A stretch of DNA of 64,000 nucleotides from positions 87,356-151,355 of the forward strand of contig CATLPG010000002.1 in assembly GCA_950054195.1 (NCBI GenBank), in the 5' to 3' direction. The notes under the pieces are model-generated. The model did no database searches. It was not told where the DNA came from and saw only the letters and a list, made by a program, of their open reading frames with translations. This document shows positions 13,385 to 24,014 of the stretch, piece after piece. The position numbers and the translations under genes were made by a program. How positions within the stretch are numbered: the stretch's first letter is position 1; each line of letters starts with the position of its first letter. Source of the stretch: an uncultured Saccharospirillaceae bacterium (lineage in GTDB: Bacteria; Bacteroidota; Bacteroidia; Flavobacteriales_D; CAJJDF01).

Positions 13385-16300
13385 TTACCTGTGCTTCTTA
13401 AAATTTTCTGCTTGCTCAAATATTTCCTTGTAAACCTCGTCTCGATCAACAAGAGGATAGCCATTTTCACCTAATAAAATGATAAGGTCAACTTTAAGCT
13501 CTGCCTTAATATCTTCTCGCTTGCTCCAATCTGTATATTTTGTTTTATCGTCAACTATCTCTTTTACTCCTTTTGCTAAAAACAATAGTTTATCCTCAGG
13601 ATAATCAAAATCATATTTATGAGCTAAGGATTTAAGGATGTCGTAAAAAGCTTTTTCCTCAAATGAAATTCCAAGTTCATCACCTGCATTAAACTCCATT
13701 TTAATATCTAAAATAAGATTTGTTAGCTCTTCTGCTATAATTTCAAATTCTTCTGCATTAAAAACATCTTGCTCGTTTCTTTCATTGTATCGCTCAACAA
13801 TGGCTTGCATTTTTTTAGAAAAATCCACCCCTTGCATTTTATTTACTTTTTTAAGCTCATCTATTGCTTTAGCTAAAAGTTTTTGTAGAATTTGAATCTT
13901 GGTGTTAGGTAGTTTAATTCTATTGATTCTATCTATGTAGTCTTCGTTGAAAATATCTATTTCTGAATCCTCCTCACCGAGTTTAAATATTTCTTCAACT
14001 CCATCGCTTGCTATGGCATTTTTTATCATGTCCCTAACCCTAGCATTCATTTGTGCTGTATCAGGAGCATTAGGCTTAGTTAGTTTAAATACAATAGAAC
14101 GAACTGCCATATAAAAGTGGACATCGTCTCTATGTTTTTGGGATAGCTTATCACTTCCTACACAAACATCGTAAGCAGCTTTCATTCTCTTTGTTAGGCT
14201 CATGAATCGTTTTTCTTGTTTATCACTTTTTAAGATAAACTCAGAAGCTAGCTTAAGTGTTTCAAGTTGATCGGTTGCAGATCCATGATAATATTTACTA
14301 CTATCAAACTTATGCATCAGTTTAGATAATAAATCCAAGTGATCTTTTACCACAATAACAGAAGCTTCAATGTCTTCAAAGTTTTGACTATCGGCTTTGT
14401 TATACATGGCTAGAGCTAAATTCATTTGTTTTTTTATACCAATGTAATCTACTACAAGCCCCTTGTTTTTTCCTTGAAACTTTCTATTTACCCTTGAAAT
14501 AGTTTGAATTAAGTTGTGTTTTTGTAGGGGTTTATCAATATAAATGGTGTCCAAAAAAGGAACGTCAAAACCTGTGAGCCACATATCAACTACAATAGCA
14601 ATTTTAAAGTTGGATTTGGCATTTTTAAACTGTCGGTCAAGTTCTTTTCTGTACTCTTTTGTACCTAAAGTATCATATAACTCTTTAGGATCATCTTGTC
14701 CCCTGGTCATTATCATTTTGATACGCTCCATGGGTTTTATCTCTTTCTTTTCTTTATCTGTTAATTCAGCTCCTTCTTCATATGCTTTTACTTCTACCCA
14801 TTCGGGACGTAATGCGATTACTTGCTTATAAAACTCATATGCAATTGGTCGACTACTGCATACAAACATAGCTTTTCCTTTAACCGTTGATCTTTCTTTG
14901 ATGCGAGTTTCATAATGGTTAACAAAGTCCTCTGCTACTGCCTGTATTCTATCTGGGTCACCAATAATTGCATTCATATTAGCAGAAGCTTTTTTGCTGG
15001 CTTCAAGTTGATATTCTGTAGCTCCTTCCTCCGCACATTGATCGTAATATTCTTCAATTCTTTTTATTTCAGAATTATCTAAAATTACTTTGGCTGCTCT
15101 TCCCTCGTAAACCAATTTTACGGTTATATCGTCTCTTACCGATTCGGTCATGGTGTAAGAGTCTACAATTTCTCCAAACACATCAAGTGTAGCATCTACC
15201 GGAGTTCCTGTAAAACCAACATAAGTTGCATTAGGCAGAGAATCGTGCAAGTACTTGGCAAAACCATACGTTTTTTGAACGCCTTTTTCGGTGATTTTTA
15301 GTTTTTGCTCAAGGTTTATTTGGCTTCTATGGGCTTCATCCGAAATACAAATGATATTGTTTCTATCTGAGAGTAGCTTTATGTCTTCAGTAAACTTGTG
15401 GATGGTAGTTAAAAACACACCGCCACTTTTTATGCCTTCCAATTTTTCTCTTAATTCAGCCCTGCTTTCTACACTAATAATATTACTGTCACCAATATAA
15501 TCTTTAGCGTTTGTAAACTGTCCTGAAAGTTGGTCGTCTAAGTCGGTTCTATCGGTTATTATGATAATGGTAGGACTAGAAAAATAGGTGCTTCTCATTA
15601 ACATACGGGTTAAGAAAAGCATCGTAAAGCTCTTTCCGCATCCTGTTGCTCCAAAATAAGTGCCACCTTTACCGTCACCTTGTGGTTTTTGGTGTTCTTT
15701 TATATTTTCAAAGAGCTTTTTTACTGCATAGTACTGAGGGTATCGACAAACAATTTTTTCATCTTTTTTGGAAGAATCAGGAAAATAAATGAAGTTATGT
15801 ATAACATCAATTAATCGTTTTTGATTAAATAACCCTTTTATCATGGTGTGAAGTGAATCTATTCCTTGTGTTTCGATAGATTCATTTCCTGTTATTTTTC
15901 TCCAAGCATACCAAAAATCATAAGGAGCAAAAAATGATCCTGCTTTGGTGTTTGCACCATCACTTATAATACTAATTGCATTGTATTTAAAAAGCTCAGG
16001 AATATCTCGTTTGTAACGTATCGTTAATTGTTTGTATGCTTCATATATACTAACATTTTCGTTGCTTGCTGTTTTAAATTCAAAAACTACCAAAGGCAAA
16101 CCATTGATATAAATAATGGCATCAGGAATACGTAAATGGTATTGCTCTATTTCCAGTTGGTTAACAACTTTAAAGATGTTGTTTTCAACCGTATTAAAAT
16201 CTAACAAGTGTATGTATAGGTCTTTTTGACTGCGATCTTCACGTTTTAGAGTAAAACCATCAGAAACAAACTTCATAATAGATTTGTTACTCTCGTATAA

Positions 16301-17919: not shown

Positions 17920-19749
17920 TTATTTAACAATAGAGTTGGCAGTTATATGTTCTTCATTGTCAAAATCTTGATAAAGGTGCTTTAAGAAGGCAAATTGCCT
18001 GTCAATACCAGTTTTTCCTTCTTGTTTTAATTCTTGGTGTCTATATTCATTCTGAACTTTCCAGTTGTGGGTGTCATTTGGCACTAAGTGAGAGATAAAA
18101 ATATTAGTATTATTATCAACTTTGCATACATAACATTTTTTCAGACTAAACCTATCATAAACCTCTTGAGGTTGATCGGTAATACATTTACACAAATTAT
18201 CTATCCCCTCTTTATCAAAATCAAATAAAAATACTATTTTCTTTTGCTTGGCTAATTTATTGAAGAATGGGACTACTTTGAATATCTTGACAAGATCGGG
18301 CATATTGCCAACTCCACGTGAATCAATAAACTTATACTTTTCATTGGATAAACCGTTATCAAAATTCTTAACATCATTTTTTCCTTCAAGGAAAACTATC
18401 ATTTCATATTTCTGATTAAAAACATCCTCTAAGATTCCAAACTCTCCATGATATACAAATTTTGGGGCTAAACGTTTTAATATTTCTCGTTTCCCTTCTT
18501 CATCATTTGCACAATTTAATTCACGAGAGTCATTTAATTCAAAAAGTTCTTTCGGCTCAACTTCTACAACAGTTGACGGGGAATGCGTTGTTAATACAAC
18601 TTTGATGTTTTTAAATTGCTCTTTTATTACTTCGATATATCTTTCTGCAAGTGTAGGGTTTAAATTAGCATCAAATTCATCTAGCATAATCATTTCTAAT
18701 TTAGACCCTTTCGCAGCAAAATAATAGCAAATAAGCTCAAATATGATTTTTTCCCCACTAGAAAGAGAATCAAAATAAATATGAGTATTTGAAGAATTAT
18801 CAAAGCGTTTAAAAGCGATTTCATAATTCGATTCATATACCTGAGGTCTAACAAGTTTATACTTAAAATATCCTTTAGAATTATACTTGCTTAACTCTTC
18901 ATTTATTAATTGCCATAATTTTTTTGTTTTAGTGTTAGAGCTTTTAGTTTTAAAGTCTTGATAGATTTTATCAGACATTTTTTGAACTATTGACTCAATA
19001 GAGCGAAACTCACGTGTAATCAATTCATAAACATATTGTTTCAGAGCATGCTCACTATTGATTTTAGATTTTCTTCTAAGCTCAATAGTTAGCTTATCTC
19101 GTATTTTTTTCTTTTTTTCATCCAGTTCTCTTTTAAGTTCTTCAGATAACTTAAAGTCAATATAATTTTGAAATATTTTTCTCCCTTGTATTATTCCATA
19201 TTTTTTTTGATTTTCATTTTTATTTTGATTTAGCACATAAATTAGATGTTCATTAACTTCTTTTTCAGTAACAATACCTAATTCATTTTGAATATTAGTT
19301 AATTCATCAAACTGGTAATCATAAAGTAATTTAGCAATTGACTCAAGATAAGTATATCCACTTTCGTAAGTGATAGATCGCTGATCGAATAACGATGAAT
19401 AGAAATCAGTTTTATCTAAAAATGGTGACTCTATTCTTCCTCGTCTTCTTAATCCAACAGATTCAACATCTTGCATAACACTATCAAATGATACATCATC
19501 AGCATATCTAATACCACCTCTGTAAGTAGCAACCCTTCTTCTTTCGTTATTATATAAATCTAAGGTTTGAGGGGTTTTAATAAAACATTTACTTCTGTCG
19601 GGATAATTTTCATAAAGATATTTAAGCATGGTTGATTTTCCACAGCCATTTAATCCTGTAATAACTGCTAACTGAGTATTAAATTCAAGAACTATATTAT
19701 TACTAATCCCTTTATATCCTTTGGGTATGGCGTATTTATTCTTTTTCAT
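17920..19749 (-). CDS. ABC/SMC-type ATPase with coiled-coil insert fused to a C-terminal TOPRIM/DUF4435-like domain (OLD-, or fused PARIS AriA-AriB-like)
   Basis: Walker A GLNGCGKST, ABC signature LSSGEK, Walker B MIMLDEFD, H-loop TTHSP. A K/E-rich insert of about 150 aa separates Walker A from the signature. The C-terminus has IVFLEGKNDVKNF (E) and FLFDFDKEG (DxD), the TOPRIM acidic pattern. Confidence 0.55.
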   Translation of the reverse strand: MKKNKYAIPKGYKGISNNIVLEFNTQLAVITGLNGCGKSTMLKYLYENYPDRSKCFIKTPQTLDLYNNERRRVATYRGGIRYADDVSFDSVMQDVESVGLRRRGRIESPFLDKTDFYSSLFDQRSITYESGYTYLESIAKLLYDYQFDELTNIQNELGIVTEKEVNEHLIYVLNQNKNENQKKYGIIQGRKIFQNYIDFKLSEELKRELDEKKKKIRDKLTIELRRKSKINSEHALKQYVYELITREFRSIESIVQKMSDKIYQDFKTKSSNTKTKKLWQLINEELSKYNSKGYFKYKLVRPQVYESNYEIAFKRFDNSSNTHIYFDSLSSGEKIIFELICYYFAAKGSKLEMIMLDEFDANLNPTLAERYIEVIKEQFKNIKVVLTTHSPSTVVEVEPKELFELNDSRELNCANDEEGKREILKRLAPKFVYHGEFGILEDVFNQKYEMIVFLEGKNDVKNFDNGLSNEKYKFIDSRGVGNMPDLVKIFKVVPFFNKLAKQKKIVFLFDFDKEGIDNLCKCITDQPQEVYDRFSLKKCYVCKVDNNTNIFISHLVPNDTHNWKVQNEYRHQELKQEGKTGIDRQFAFLKHLYQDFDNEEHITANSIVK

Positions 19750-19754
19750 AATTT

Positions 19755-21044
19755 TTATTTAACCATCTCCTTTTCACTCTCAACCTTTGTCATTTTGGAG
19801 AGGAGTAAGTCTTTCATTTTTATTAAAAAGCCATTTTCTTCACTTAAAATAGACTTATGATAAAATTTTACATTCACTAAATCATCAAATATTTTCAATG
19901 TTTTTTCATCTGGGAATAGTATTTCAAAATTCTCTAAATCATCCTTTGTAACTGCTTCACGAGTAGATCCTGACTCACTAACTCCTAATAATTTTTGTTT
20001 ATATTCTTTTGACGTCAAAGCACATAAAAGATATTTAACTCCATTTCCTTTCAATCTTATTATTGCAACATGTTGATTTACTCTAGCAGGTAAAATTTCT
20101 GTTGGAACGATACAGCATCTTGCTACTGATGCTCCAGTTATATTAAATAAAATATCATGCTCTAACACTTCAACATTTTTTAATTTATCAGCTTGATAAG
20201 TATCAATATATGCTAAGTCCTTAGCTTTAAACTTAAAATCATATACATTCATACTTCTAATTAAGGAAATTCCAGATTCTTTATAGTTATCTTTTCCACC
20301 TCTAGGAGTTGAGCCACTGCCTATTTTAATGCATTTTAATCCTAATTTCAAAACCTCCCACCCCTCAGGAATATCCTTATCAAGTTCTTCATTATACACT
20401 AGTTTACCACCAGAGCTTTTATAGGGTTTTAACACACCCCCAGCCCCTCTCGAGAGGGGAGTGTTGGCTGAAGGGAACTCAAAATCTACGAACCAATGTT
20501 TGTAAAGGGCTTGGGCGGTTTCTTCTAGTTTTTGGTTGAATTGTTCGTTTAGTTTTATTCGGTTTACTACTGTATTGTATTCTTTTACTATTGCTCTTTG
20601 TTTTTCTATGCTTGGGATAGGAAGTTCTACTTCACACATTTCATCATAATCGAAAAACTCATGAGCAGACCCATGAGATTTATAACGTGCATACCTGTCA
20701 AATTCAGGTCTTTTAAACCACATCATTAAATACTCTGAATTTAAAATATTTTCATCCTTAGATTTGAATATTCGATATGATGGAGAAACTATACAATCTT
20801 TTCCTTGCCTTAAAGCGATAGAAATTTTATCTCCATTTCTTGTAGTAGCTCTGTTAAAGGCAAATTGACCATTTCTAACAATTCGGTATTTAGTCAAATC
20901 CACACCTATCGTATTTGTTTTAGCCTTTTGAAAGTGTTTTTGATTACTTATACCTCTTAGCATAGATTCTGAAATTTCACTTTCAGAATTTTTCTCATTA
21001 CAAGGTTCAATGTATTCTCCTAAACGTTTATAAGTCGATTTCAT
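19755..21044 (-). CDS. hsdS: Type I restriction-modification specificity subunit
   Basis: 429 aa with two target-recognition halves. They are separated by the conserved helix IEKQRAIVKEYNTVVNRIKLNEQFNQKLEETAQALYKHWFVDFEFP. Overlaps hsdM by 17 nt. Confidence 0.85.
   Translation of the reverse strand: MKSTYKRLGEYIEPCNEKNSESEISESMLRGISNQKHFQKAKTNTIGVDLTKYRIVRNGQFAFNRATTRNGDKISIALRQGKDCIVSPSYRIFKSKDENILNSEYLMMWFKRPEFDRYARYKSHGSAHEFFDYDEMCEVELPIPSIEKQRAIVKEYNTVVNRIKLNEQFNQKLEETAQALYKHWFVDFEFPSANTPLSRGAGGVLKPYKSSGGKLVYNEELDKDIPEGWEVLKLGLKCIKIGSGSTPRGGKDNYKESGISLIRSMNVYDFKFKAKDLAYIDTYQADKLKNVEVLEHDILFNITGASVARCCIVPTEILPARVNQHVAIIRLKGNGVKYLLCALTSKEYKQKLLGVSESGSTREAVTKDDLENFEILFPDEKTLKIFDDLVNVKFYHKSILSEENGFLIKMKDLLLSKMTKVESEKEMVK
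20431..20465. repeat. GC-rich palindromic REP/MITE-like element (copy 1, inside hsdS)
   Basis: AACACACCCCCAGCCCCTCTCGAGAGGGGAGTGTT contains the perfect palindrome CCCCTCTCGAGAGGGG flanked by AACAC/GTGTT. A near-identical sequence lies at 55926-55956. Confidence 0.8.
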
Positions 21045-22590
21045 ACCCCAATTCTTTAAATACGTTTAGTAATTCGGTTTTCGATTGTTCCTCTTGGTTT
21101 AATAAATCAGCAAACTCTGTTTGTAAAGACTTCATTTTATCCTCAAAATCAATGTTTTCGTCTCTGTTTACAAATTCTATGTATTTACTAGGTACAAGTG
21201 AATAATCTTTCTTTTCAATCTCTTCTAATGTTGCCGAATAGCAAAACTCTGGTACATCTTTATAATCGGTACTTGCTTGTTGCCATTTATGATACGTATT
21301 TGAGATAAGCTCAATGTTTTCTTCAGAAAACTGAATGAATTTTTTTTCAAATGGAATCCCAATTTTTCTCAAATCCATAAAGAGTATTTCTTCTTGCCGA
21401 TTACGGTAGTTTCTTTTACCACCAGGTAAATCAAGTAAACGTTCTTTTTTATTTTTATTTACAATCCAAATGGTTACACTTATATCAGTAGTATAAAACA
21501 TACTACTAGGAAGAATAACAATAGCTTCAATTAAGCCATTTTTAATGAGTTTTTTACGAATTTTATATTCTTCGCCACCACCACTTAAGGCACCATTTGC
21601 CAGTATAAACCCTGCAACTCCGTTTTGTGAGAGTTTGCTTACCATGTTTAGTATCCAACCGTAATTGGCATTGCTCTTTGGTGGCACATCATAACCTCTC
21701 CATCTGGGGTCGTCTAATAATTCATCTGCTCCTCTCCAGTCTTTTTGGTTAAAAGGAGGGTTTGCCATAATAAAATCAGCTTTCAAGTCTGGGTGTTGGT
21801 CTTTAGCAAAAGTATCAGCAGGTACATCTCCCAAGTTGGCGTTAATTCCTCTAATGGCCAAGTTCATTTTGGCTAGTTTGTAGGTAGTAGCAGTATATTC
21901 TTGTCCGTAAATAGAAACTTCTTTTTTATTTCCGTTATGGCTTTCAATAAACTTCATACTTTGCACAAACATACCTCCCGAACCACACGCAGGGTCATAA
22001 ATAACGCCTTTGTATGGCTCAATCATTTCGGCAATAAGGTTTACAATACTCTTAGGCGTATAAAATTCTCCTTTCCCTTTTCCTTCGGCTAGGGCAAACT
22101 TGCTTAAAAAATATTCATACACACGCCCCACAATGTCTTGCTGTTCGTCTTTTAGTGTGTCAATATTGTTTATAGTATCAAGCAAAGAAGACAGTTTACT
22201 GGCATCCATTCCCAAACGAGAAAAATAATTATCGGGTAAAGCTCCTTTTAATATTGGGTTGTTTTTCTCTATGGTAAACAAAGCGGTATCAATTTTTATG
22301 GCAATATCATCTTGCTTGGCGTTTTCCATGATATAACTCCAACGAGATTCAAGAGCTAGATAAAACACGTTATCTTTTTGGTAAAATGCTACCATATCGG
22401 CATACTGCTCTTTACCATCTGCAATTAAAGCTTGCCTGTGTTTTTCGAACTTATCACTTGTAAATTTCAAGAAGATTAAGCCAAGTACTACGTGCTTATA
22501 CTCAGAGCTTTCAACCTTTCCACGTAGTTTATTAGCCGCATCCCAGAGCGACTCTTCGATTGACTTGTCTTTTTTTGTTGTTTTTGCCAT
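21028..22590 (-). CDS. hsdM: Type I restriction-modification N6-adenine DNA methyltransferase subunit
   Basis: HsdM N-terminal LWDAANKLRG. AdoMet motif IYDPACGSGGMF. Catalytic MANPPFN. Confidence 0.9.
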   Translation of the reverse strand: MAKTTKKDKSIEESLWDAANKLRGKVESSEYKHVVLGLIFLKFTSDKFEKHRQALIADGKEQYADMVAFYQKDNVFYLALESRWSYIMENAKQDDIAIKIDTALFTIEKNNPILKGALPDNYFSRLGMDASKLSSLLDTINNIDTLKDEQQDIVGRVYEYFLSKFALAEGKGKGEFYTPKSIVNLIAEMIEPYKGVIYDPACGSGGMFVQSMKFIESHNGNKKEVSIYGQEYTATTYKLAKMNLAIRGINANLGDVPADTFAKDQHPDLKADFIMANPPFNQKDWRGADELLDDPRWRGYDVPPKSNANYGWILNMVSKLSQNGVAGFILANGALSGGGEEYKIRKKLIKNGLIEAIVILPSSMFYTTDISVTIWIVNKNKKERLLDLPGGKRNYRNRQEEILFMDLRKIGIPFEKKFIQFSEENIELISNTYHKWQQASTDYKDVPEFCYSATLEEIEKKDYSLVPSKYIEFVNRDENIDFEDKMKSLQTEFADLLNQEEQSKTELLNVFKELGYEIDL

Positions 22591-22664
22591 AGATTAACAG
22601 TGTTGATCGTTAATTATAGCAATAAAAAAGGGAAATATTCGCTTCTATTTAATTAAAATGTTGA

Positions 22665-24014
22665 TTACTTCCCAATACAAAACTTACTAAAAATATTGCC
22701 TAATAAATCATCGGTGGTGATCTCTCCTGTGATCTCTCCTAGGTAATGAAGCGACTGGCGAATGTCAATGGCTAATAAATCACCCGAAATACCTGTTTCC
22801 AATCCGTTTTTAACCGATTGAATAGCGTTATGAGCTTTGCTAAAGGCTTCATAGTGTCGCATATTAGTAATAATTACTTCTTGCTCACTAGCTCTGTCAT
22901 TTTCAATCAGCTCCACCAGTTTATTTTCTAATAAATGAATGTTTTCACTCTTATCGGCAGAAATCAGTAAATCAGCAAAAGCAGGTTGTTGGTCGCTTAA
23001 ATCAATTTTATTACCAACCAAAATTATTTTCGCATCAGTTATTGCTTCAATTTTTTCTCGTTGTGCTTTTATCAAGTCTTCGCTATCACTTACATCAAAT
23101 AGGTGAATAATGATGTTTGATTTTTTTGCTCGTTCTAAAGCTTTATCTATACCAATTTTTTCAATGGTATCTTCTGTTTCTCTAATTCCAGCAGTATCAA
23201 TAAATCGAAAGCTAATGCCTTTAATGGTTATTTCATCTTCTACCAAATCCCTTGTGGTACCAGCAATTTCAGATACTATTGCCTTGTTATCCTTTAATAG
23301 CTGATTTAATAAGGTTGATTTCCCTGCGTTTGGAGAACCAATAATAGATACAGGTACACCATTTTTTATAGCATTTCCATACGAGAATGAATCCACAATG
23401 TGTGATAATTTCGTGTCAATTTTATCAAGTAATTCATTCAGTTGCGTACGATCAGCAAACTCTACATCTTCTTCACTAAAATCCAACTCAAGCTCAATAA
23501 GTGAAGCAAAATTAATCAGCTCTTCTCTCAAAACAGAGATCTCATTTGAAACGCCTCCTTTCATTTGGTTCATTGCTAATTGATGCGCGGCTTTTGATGA
23601 CGAATCAATCAAATCTGCGATTGCTTCTGTTTGGGATAAGTCCATCTTACCATTACTAAAGGCACGCATCGAAAACTCTCCGGGTTTAGCTAATCGAGCA
23701 CCAAAATGAATGAGTAATTCTAATATTTTTTGTTGGATATATATAGATCCATGACAAGCAATTTCAATGGTATCTTCTCCTGTAAATGAAGTAGGGTTTT
23801 TAAAAACAGAAACCAGCACTTCGTCAATAACTTCATTATTGAAATTAATTGTTCCAAAAAGCACTTGGTGAGAAGGTACGTGAGCAATTTTTTTAGAAAA
23901 AATTTTCTCTGTTAATTCAAAGGCTTGATCTCCCGAAACACGAATAACAGCAATTGCTCCAATGCCATTAGCTGTAGATAATGCACATATAGTATCTGTA
24001 GATGATAAATTCAT
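22665..24014 (-). CDS. mnmE: tRNA modification GTPase MnmE (TrmE)
   Basis: G-domain GSPNAGKSTLLN, DTAGIRE, GNKIDL. C-terminal FCIGK motif. Confidence 0.9.
   Translation of the reverse strand: MNLSSTDTICALSTANGIGAIAVIRVSGDQAFELTEKIFSKKIAHVPSHQVLFGTINFNNEVIDEVLVSVFKNPTSFTGEDTIEIACHGSIYIQQKILELLIHFGARLAKPGEFSMRAFSNGKMDLSQTEAIADLIDSSSKAAHQLAMNQMKGGVSNEISVLREELINFASLIELELDFSEEDVEFADRTQLNELLDKIDTKLSHIVDSFSYGNAIKNGVPVSIIGSPNAGKSTLLNQLLKDNKAIVSEIAGTTRDLVEDEITIKGISFRFIDTAGIRETEDTIEKIGIDKALERAKKSNIIIHLFDVSDSEDLIKAQREKIEAITDAKIILVGNKIDLSDQQPAFADLLISADKSENIHLLENKLVELIENDRASEQEVIITNMRHYEAFSKAHNAIQSVKNGLETGISGDLLAIDIRQSLHYLGEITGEITTDDLLGNIFSKFCIGK

Follow-up and report, generated by a model that had tools for sequence, protein, structure and literature searches.

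Two predicted nuclease genes embedded between hsdS and hsdR of a Type IC-like restriction-modification operon in an uncultured bacterium

The DNA considered here is a stretch of 64,000 nucleotides (nt) from contig CATLPG010000002.1 of an uncultured Saccharospirillaceae bacterium (assembly GCA_950054195.1), referred to below as the window. At positions 13385-22590 it carries five minus-strand open reading frames (ORFs) in succession, which encode a Type I restriction-modification (R-M) system together with two further genes, termed cargo 1 and cargo 2, that lie between hsdS and hsdR (Table 1). The order is hsdM, hsdS, cargo 1, cargo 2 and hsdR with junctions of -17, +5, +33 and -4 nt, and a preliminary description of the sequence had given the order, coordinates and junctions exactly as they stand in the ORF list. 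The first junction is a 17-nt overlap of hsdM and hsdS, and the last is an ATGA stop/start overlap of 4 nt between cargo 2 and hsdR. The interpretation developed below, which we hold with reasonable but limited confidence, is that the operon combines restriction with two autonomous, co-expressed defence genes, so that immunity would be layered.

Table 1. Genes and boundary features of the five-gene block in the window (aa, amino acids; GC, G+C content).
Feature	Position	Strand	Size and remarks
hsdM, Type I methyltransferase subunit	21028..22590	-	520 aa
hsdS, specificity subunit, two target-recognition domains	19755..21044	-	429 aa
Cargo 1, single-chain ABC ATPase with helical insert and C-terminal TOPRIM, OLD-like	17920..19749	-	609 aa
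Cargo 2, Schlafen (AlbA_2), GHKL ATPase (HATPase_c_4) and winged helix-turn-helix, "Schlatpase-HTH"	16519..17886	-	455 aa
hsdR, restriction/translocase subunit	13385..16522	-	1045 aa
AT-rich intergenic gap 3' of hsdR, distal boundary	12807..13384	.	578 bp, 23% GC
Spacer from mnmE stop to hsdM start, proximal boundary	22591..22664	-	74 nt, without recognisable promoter
mnmE, upstream of hsdM	22665..24014	- (24014..22665)	Pfam/sequence

The three R-M genes make up a complete Type I system, apparently functional, with intact motifs. HsdM was matched by HsdM_N and N6_Mtase of Pfam (4.8e-103) and by the PADLOC model MTase_I (3.3e-150), and it retains the motifs DPACGSG at residue 199 and NPPF at 277. 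HsdS contains two Methylase_S stretches (Pfam) and is covered nearly over its full length by Specificity_I of PADLOC (e.g., residues 7-418). In HsdR, the Pfam domains HSDR_N, SWI2_SNF2/ResIII, T1R_D3-like and T1RH-like_C were found alongside a PADLOC REase_I match of 1281 bits, and the motifs PD...EFK (133-150), GCGKS (294) and DEAH (395) are intact. HsdM is nearer to the M protein of EcoR124II (1e-46) than to that of EcoKI, a Type IA enzyme (1e-15), and the closest solved structure to HsdR is the EcoR124I HsdR of Type IC (4e-30). By these comparisons the system is closer to Type IC than to Type IA. A phase-variable shufflon, already discounted in the preliminary description, was rejected: hsdS is single, no second copy being found by tblastn in the 64-kb window, and scans of flanking ORFs with Pfam and NCBIfam brought up no recombinase.

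Cargo 1 was assigned by Pfam to the ABC ATPases (AAA_21/SMC_N). Its ATPase motifs are Walker A GLNGCGKS at residue 32, signature LSSGE at 329, Walker B MIMLDE at 353 and H-loop TTHS at 387, and its TOPRIM motifs are EGKND at 455 (E455-G-x-x-D459) and DFD at 510 (D510-F-D512). In 50 homologues, down to 22% identity, residues K38, S330, K334, D357, E358, H389, E455, G456 and D510 are invariant, while D459 and D512 are conserved at 90% or more. An AlphaFold model with a confidence score (pLDDT) of 81 gives an ABC head interrupted by a long helical insert (approximately residues 88-290), followed by a C-terminal alpha/beta domain. The best Foldseek matches of the whole chain were retron PtuA ATPases, SMC and Rad50 heads, and AriA, with low template modelling scores because the chain has several domains. 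The C-terminal domain was then modelled separately (pLDDT 87), and its top Foldseek matches were almost all TOPRIM proteins (JetD, GyrB/ParE, T7 primase, DnaG and small Toprim proteins). Furthermore, the profile of this domain matched the small Toprim protein 1t6t (4.8e-5). Thus, the TOPRIM call is upheld by the conserved residues, the 1t6t profile match and the structural neighbours of the C-terminal domain. The two domain architectures proposed in the preliminary description, ATPase-TOPRIM for cargo 1 and AlbA_2-HATPase-wHTH (winged helix-turn-helix) for cargo 2, are both borne out.

The models for AriA, AbiLi, PtuA, GajA and the retron I-B ATPase-Toprim protein cover only generic ATPase segments of cargo 1, at 1e-9 to 1e-14, with the AriA models restricted to the C-terminal half of the ATPase and the GajA model to residues 347-409. 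Neither RloB (PF13707) nor DUF4435 (AriB) matched the protein even at E<=10, no PrrC model was found among the 25 best of its 51 PADLOC matches, and the OLD-like TOPRIM model PF20469 gave no match on the cargo 1 of the window. The Pfam domain OLD-like_TOPRIM is present on P0085, a remote relative within the family, and many homologues have a precomputed AAA_15 annotation. Because of these two annotations, the unmatched RloB and DUF4435 and the partial PADLOC coverage, cargo 1 is classed by sequence as OLD-like and not as a member of PARIS, RloAB or PrrC. It shares with the OLD family (P2 Old, GajA, the retron ATPase-TOPRIM and HEC-04) an ABC ATPase and a TOPRIM domain on one chain, E...DxD ligands and a length of about 600 aa. 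It differs from that family in having no PF20469 match, and in a helical insert and a C-terminal helix that are specific to the cargo 1 family. HEC-04, a single-chain ATPase-TOPRIM protein, defends alone. RloAB, Lactococcus AbiL and PARIS likewise combine an ABC ATPase with a TOPRIM-type nuclease, and cargo 1 shows weak, ATPase-only AbiLi/AriA matches and has AriA as a structural neighbour. However, these systems consist of two proteins, whereas cargo 1 joins both functions on one chain, and its TOPRIM domain is closest by profile to small primase/RNase-M5-type Toprim proteins.

The cargo 1 family is small. A word-indexed search identified 118 relatives among 5.8 billion proteins, and in an exhaustive profile search of 1.84 billion representatives the matches numbered 404 below 1e-30, while those that were full-length and below 1e-60 came to about 30. 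No homologue was found in a phage collection, and a plasmid collection held partial ATPase matches only, in two plasmids. Judged by these searches, the family is a narrow, rare and mainly Flavobacteriia-centred clade. The genera named for homologues of the two cargo proteins are Algibacter, Oceanihabitans, Flavobacterium, Chryseobacterium and Kaistella, and on this basis the window is assigned to a metagenome-only member of the Flavobacteriia.

To describe the genomic context of cargo 1, 16 loci were retrieved from reference genomes (comparison loci are cited by number, from L001 onwards). Homologues of 65-77% identity follow hsdS of the same R-M family in L001-L005, L007 and L009, where HsdM is 69-81% and HsdR 57-70% identical to that of the window. 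Cargo 1 was counted next after hsdS in eight related Flavobacteriia loci with both flanks visible. The contig of L008 starts inside the cargo 1 homologue and leaves only the downstream cargo and hsdR visible, and in L006 no hsdR was found within 7.5 kb downstream of the homologue. What lies between cargo 1 and hsdR varies from locus to locus: nothing in L002 and L007, an AbiEi-like DUF6088 gene with AbiEii in L001, a 596-aa GmrSD-like protein with a 368-aa ORF in L003, DUF6088 with SoFic in L004, and a 211-aa ORF with a weak IS200-like transposase match in L005. In L008 the interval holds a 596-aa ORF (unscanned, with the length and position of the GmrSD-like ORF of L003) followed by DUF6088 and AbiEii, and in L009 it holds a 596-aa ORF (unscanned) followed by AAA_14-DUF4143. 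Further genes are present between hsdM and hsdS, with DUF1016 in L003 and a 368-aa ORF of equal length in L009, and also between hsdS and the cargo 1 homologue (Abi_C in L004, a 250-aa ORF in L005 and a helicase-like ORF of superfamily 2, SF2, in L002).

More distant members of the family (38-42% identical) occur in mixed contexts (L030-L033). One lies within another Type I operon (L032), one near mnmE in a decayed island with DUF1016 and an HSDR_N fragment (L031), one stands alone beside Fic in Francisella (L030), and one is directly 3' of an integrase and an excisionase-like helix-turn-helix gene (L033). By these contexts the cargo 1 family is a module that is autonomous but strongly favours the slot after hsdS. 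Two loci deserve separate mention. In a Rickettsia metagenome-assembled genome (L012:7875-11905), an RloA-like (AAA_21) and RloB pair stands immediately upstream of a cargo 1 homologue; this is a tandem of two ABC/TOPRIM systems, with RloA and RloB as genes distinct from the cargo 1 family. An Actinobacillus homologue (L010:9989-11819) is split in two ORFs and is probably a pseudogene; guaB, a Fic gene and guaA lie upstream of it, and its neighbourhood has no R-M genes.

All three parts of cargo 2 exceed their Pfam thresholds: SLFN_AlbA_2 (PF04326; 1.6e-13, 51.6 bits against a cutoff of 25.3), HATPase_c_4 (PF13749; 3.3e-25, 88.4 bits against 26) and the winged helix-turn-helix (HTH_24, 6.1e-7, 29.4 bits against 21.9; HTH_11, 27 against 25). 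The catalytic motif of Schlafen ribonucleases (RNases) has been defined as Ex4(E/D)xK (PMC13056530), and cargo 2 has it as Ex4ExK with residues E3/E8/K10. Across 23 homologues these residues do not vary, and neither do E262/N266 of the GHKL N-box or G331-R-G333. With PADLOC, the N-terminal module of SLFN-pAgo was matched. Over residues 1-365, identity among proteins from Bacteroidota, Balneolales and Atribacteria is 63-78%. The wHTH tail (window 16519-16800, the last approximately 90 aa) follows a Gly-rich or LVDGLV-repeat linker and is hypervariable; in sequence alignments it looks like a swapped or diversifying specificity module.

In domain order, Ex4ExK and GHKL motifs, cargo 2 is identical to the pSlfn-HisKinase-HTH proteins, which make up 19.2% of prokaryotic Schlafens (PMC13056530). 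Linkage of this architecture to R-M has already been reported, in that clusters of R-M genes and "tightly associated" genes for Schlafen, ATPase and DNA-binding domains were described (PMC13462974); groups working on bacterial Schlafens call the activation mechanism of these homologues open. SLFN-pAgo, which has the same "Schlatpase" supradomain, tetramerises upon ATP binding and cleaves transfer RNA (tRNA; 10.64898/2026.05.29.728809), and it is the only member for which ATP-dependent oligomerisation and tRNA cleavage are known. Thus, cargo 2 has a common and already described architecture and is, by analogy, a predicted tRNase.

Two cargo 2 homologues, in L025/L026 and in L029 and with identities of 71% and 69% to that of the window, stand directly 5' of hsdR with the same 4-nt overlap, and are preceded by SIR2, HerA and PDDEXK_15 genes in L025/L026, and by an unknown 641-aa protein and NACHT in L029. 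A Galbibacter homologue stands alone beside mutS. Among 80 metagenome loci of cargo 2 homologues, about 61 had enough downstream sequence to judge, and hsdR follows directly in no fewer than 9 of them, which is a lower bound as the HsdR of the window was the only tblastn query. Wherever it lies inside a Type I operon, cargo 2 is the last gene before hsdR, in at least 11 independent loci (the window, L025/26, L029, L035, L039, L040, L042, L046, L080, L097 and L100). The 4-nt overlap is present at nine of the 11 junctions; in L063 the gap is about 430 nt. The position holds even where HsdR is only 25-34% identical to that of the window (L080, L097 and L100).

The variable cargo is always found in the interval from hsdS to the Schlafen gene; it includes PDDEXK_4, RhuM, DUF6088, GmrSD, a primase-like protein with a reverse transcriptase (RT), two TIR proteins and an ABC ATPase. 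The statement in the preliminary description that the slot between hsdS and hsdR hosts defence cargo therefore holds for relatives of this locus, which carry AbiEi/AbiEii, GmrSD, SoFic, SIR2-HerA, NACHT, TIR and RT genes there. An HsdR clade specific to the Schlafen gene was considered and rejected. In the HsdR tree, loci that have the gene are mixed with loci that do not, and cargo 2 is not, on this phylogenetic evidence, an obligate Type I subunit. In two further loci (L075:8001-12380 and L107:5807-9320), a Schlatpase-HTH gene abuts or overlaps genes for the TOTE primase (AEP-TOTE) and an SF2 helicase, and TOTE is thus a second kind of SF2 motor partner of Schlatpase-HTH besides HsdR. In a limited literature survey, no published statement was found of the rule that cargo 2 precedes hsdR or of the coupling with TOTE.

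The two cargo genes co-occur in this one species only. No Schlafen homologue was found in L001-L009, and the ABC ATPases beside Schlafen genes in L039 and L058 are unrelated to cargo 1 or have no TOPRIM domain; on these grounds we rejected the idea that cargo 1 and cargo 2 form a conserved two-gene system. To judge by their distribution, cargo 1 and cargo 2 are independent acquisitions and separate modules. Since both families also occur outside R-M loci, the genes are regarded as autonomous modules and not as R-M subunits. Scans for sigma-70 promoters and terminators gave results at or below chance, and none of the five genes has the Bacteroidetes -7 motif TAnnTTTG in the 200 nt upstream of it. 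Co-transcription of the five genes is plausible because of their tight spacing and the lack of an above-chance terminator. As no promoter was recognised, transcription may read through from mnmE or start at a non-consensus promoter.

The position of the block between a long AT-rich gap and mnmE was described beforehand as consistent with an accessory island. Both boundaries are real, and accessory status is weakly supported: GC and GC at third codon positions (GC3) of the block are the same as those of the genome, and no empty site was recovered from relatives of the flanking gene. The gap has 23% GC against a mean of 33% for the window, and no ORF, Rfam match or tRNA-like feature was found in it; the Rfam search of the whole window also gave no matches. 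No repeats, tRNA or integrase were found. Past the gap, a 364-aa ORF (orf364, window 11712-12806) has no Pfam or NCBIfam match and clusters with an OmpH/Skp-like gene and further unannotated ORFs, an arrangement conserved in related Flavobacteriales (L114 and L115). Homologues of orf364 with 49-61% identity keep the cluster with OmpH and have other genes upstream, with no mnmE. On the opposite side, mnmE directly precedes hsdM in Kaistella (L002:2342-3715) as it does in the window, lies near the decayed island with an OLD-like gene in L031 (4580-5974), and is about 7 kb from a Schlatpase gene in L069 (2-685). These positions, in genomes that are unrelated, hint at a recurrent defence hotspot adjacent to mnmE.

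The exact cargo 2 protein is present on 17 contigs, and the island DNA is 100% identical in the eight that were fetched. One low-coverage metagenome assembly of the same organism (L020:5598-5629) has a 32-nt insertion in hsdM flanked by a duplication of CCAAT, at a point corresponding to about 22200 on the minus strand of the window, which breaks HsdM into 121 and 393 aa; outside this insertion the island is 100% identical. Either hsdM is naturally knocked out there or the insertion is an artefact of assembly.

The gene order, the domain content, the conserved catalytic residues and the recurrent embedding with variable neighbours are observed directly, and layered defence by autonomous, co-expressed cargo is the explanation of the locus to which we give somewhat better than even weight. 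The Type IC-like operon would be a landing pad for defence cargo, in whose hsdS-hsdR slot two separately acquired genes for abortive-infection-type nucleases were placed, most probably on the same transcript. As the first line, an HsdM2S1R2 enzyme would methylate self DNA and cut unmethylated incoming DNA, and behind restriction the two predicted abortive-infection nucleases would form a back-up. In cargo 1, the ATPase head with its helical insert may be an infection sensor or switch, and the Mg-dependent TOPRIM domain would cleave nucleic acid (DNA or tRNA) in an ATP-gated manner, as in OLD, HEC-04 and PARIS. Cargo 2 would oligomerise on ATP and cut tRNA via Ex4ExK, by analogy with SLFN-pAgo, and its hypervariable wHTH tail may be the specificity or sensor element. 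Beyond the observed features we infer co-transcription, the nuclease substrates, the triggers and any cross-talk with the R-M enzyme. The strict position of cargo 2 5' of hsdR and its translational coupling suggest that its dosage or activity is tied to HsdR, and either cargo might sense the failure of R-M.

Several results weigh against layered defence by these two genes. For cargo 1, the Pfam Toprim score is below threshold (20.8 bits against a cutoff of 23.1), and the Foldseek E-values for TOPRIM matches are weak (0.05-0.2), so that this support is qualitative only. A PADLOC run on all five proteins, as the preliminary description had proposed, recognised the three R-M subunits and the SLFN-pAgo module of cargo 2, but matched no full-length family for cargo 1. 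No promoter was recognised for the operon in the sigma-70 and TAnnTTTG scans. Regarding cargo 2, no hsdR was detectable directly downstream in some 80% or more of the Schlatpase-HTH homologues sampled, and some of the genes lie beside housekeeping genes, such as hemC/hemD in L065. Furthermore, pSlfn-HisKinase fusions gave no protection in E. coli against the phage panel used (PMC13056530), and defence by that architecture is therefore unproven.

A first alternative, which we consider possible but unlikely, is that the cargo proteins act as guardians, as PrrC and PARIS do. One or both would be held latent on the Type I enzyme and would fire only once a phage disables that enzyme by an anti-restriction protein, be it an Ocr-type DNA mimic or a Stp-like peptide, whereupon tRNA would be cut and infection aborted. 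The "RM guardian" is an accepted functional concept for PrrC, which we take to consist of an N-terminal nucleoside triphosphatase and a C-terminal nuclease, presumably encoded directly after hsdS. Cargo 1 occupies the post-hsdS slot, the position that the preliminary description gives for prrC, and the R-M system is nearest to Type IC, to which EcoprrI belongs. The prrC/EcoprrI locus of E. coli and the present one thus share a nuclease gene embedded in a Type I operon whose R-M genes are nearest to Type IC. In close relatives, cargo 1 is in a Type I operon wherever its flanks are visible, and cargo 2 is translationally coupled to hsdR even across HsdR proteins 25-34% identical. The combination of ABC ATPase and TOPRIM also follows the logic of PARIS and of RloAB, which has been found inside a Type I locus, with synergy with PARIS proposed (PMC10802264). 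However, cargo 1 has no sequence relation to PrrC and its nuclease is a TOPRIM domain, not the PrrC anticodon nuclease; neither cargo is a sequence member of PrrC, AriA/AriB (no DUF4435 match) or RloB. Both families also occur without R-M genes, the cargo 1 family included, so latency cannot generally depend on HsdMSR, and the interspersed HsdR tree argues against an obligate complex.

A bolder proposal, to which we give slightly less credence than to the guardian, extends the coupling of cargo 2 to its motor. In many Type I systems cargo 2 would serve as a fourth component, dedicated and coupled to HsdR, and it would be a partner of SF2 translocases more generally, including the TOTE primase-helicase; the ATGA overlap would fix its amount relative to HsdR. 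Its task would be to survey the motor, whether translocating or stalled, or the DNA ends that the motor makes, and to cleave tRNA when restriction fails, and the rare cargo 1 family would be a second, independent guardian specialised for the post-hsdS slot. If true, the fourth-component Schlafen would correspond, as a bacterial version acting in trans, to the way in which mammalian SLFN11/13 combine nuclease and helicase.

It is improbable that cargo 2 is chiefly a DNA-binding controller of hsdR or of the operon and not a nuclease effector, in the manner of the C proteins, whose genes precede and overlap Type II R genes. Such a role would agree with the winged helix-turn-helix above its Pfam threshold, with the annotation of the family as transcriptional regulator in databases, and with the invariable position immediately 5' of hsdR in Type I operons with the ATGA overlap. 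Variation in the protein is moreover greatest in the wHTH, which would fit a different operator being read by each, and for Type I islands control by the small repressor RptR is already known (PMC12255303). However, the Ex4ExK and GHKL residues are invariant across phyla, which a pure repressor has no reason to keep, and the same supradomain is an ATP-driven tRNase in SLFN-pAgo. Most members of the cargo 2 family are not adjacent to hsdR, and many Type I operons of the same family are without the cargo 2 gene. We see next to no chance that the inner genes are housekeeping or repair genes (a RecF/RecN-like ATPase and a "RecG-like helicase") placed in the hsd operon by accident, as the automatic names "ATP-dependent DNA helicase RecG" and "EcfA2" and the indistinct GC of the island might suggest, given that there is no helicase domain, that HATPase_c_4 is a GHKL fold, that both families are patchy across phyla and cargo 1 very rare, and that the neighbours of both are overwhelmingly defence genes.

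Layered defence by separate cargo also has support from the literature. A survey based on "guilt-by-embedding" indicates that genes embedded in Type I R-M operons are usually defence genes (10.1101/2024.01.29.577857). Campylobacter rlo genes are embedded in Type I operons, and TgvAB of VPI-2 in Vibrio cholerae is a tested Type I-embedded defence (PMC11411939), as is DarTG2 of enteropathogenic E. coli (EPEC) with its RptR regulator (PMC12255303). Like the present cargo, TgvAB and DarTG2 are encoded within a Type I operon, and their protection has been shown or proposed to be complementary and layered. Their effector chemistry is unlike that predicted here, given that TgvAB is a GmrSD-type Type IV restriction system and DarTG2 is a DNA ADP-ribosylating toxin-antitoxin.

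The embedding of defence genes in Type I operons is thus already established, and both cargo architectures are of described kinds. Modestly new are a rare ABC-TOPRIM clade for the post-hsdS slot and the strict adjacency of Schlatpase to hsdR. Neither lead overturns current understanding, and the locus is a good but fairly ordinary example of defence stacking. It is also a clean natural example of layered immunity, in which restriction and two predicted abortive-infection nucleases would be encoded in one transcription unit. The cargo 1 family lies outside the PADLOC v2 models and could be a new R-M guardian. For pSlfn-HisKinase-HTH, the most common bacterial Schlafen architecture, the fixed position before hsdR offers a concrete activation hypothesis.

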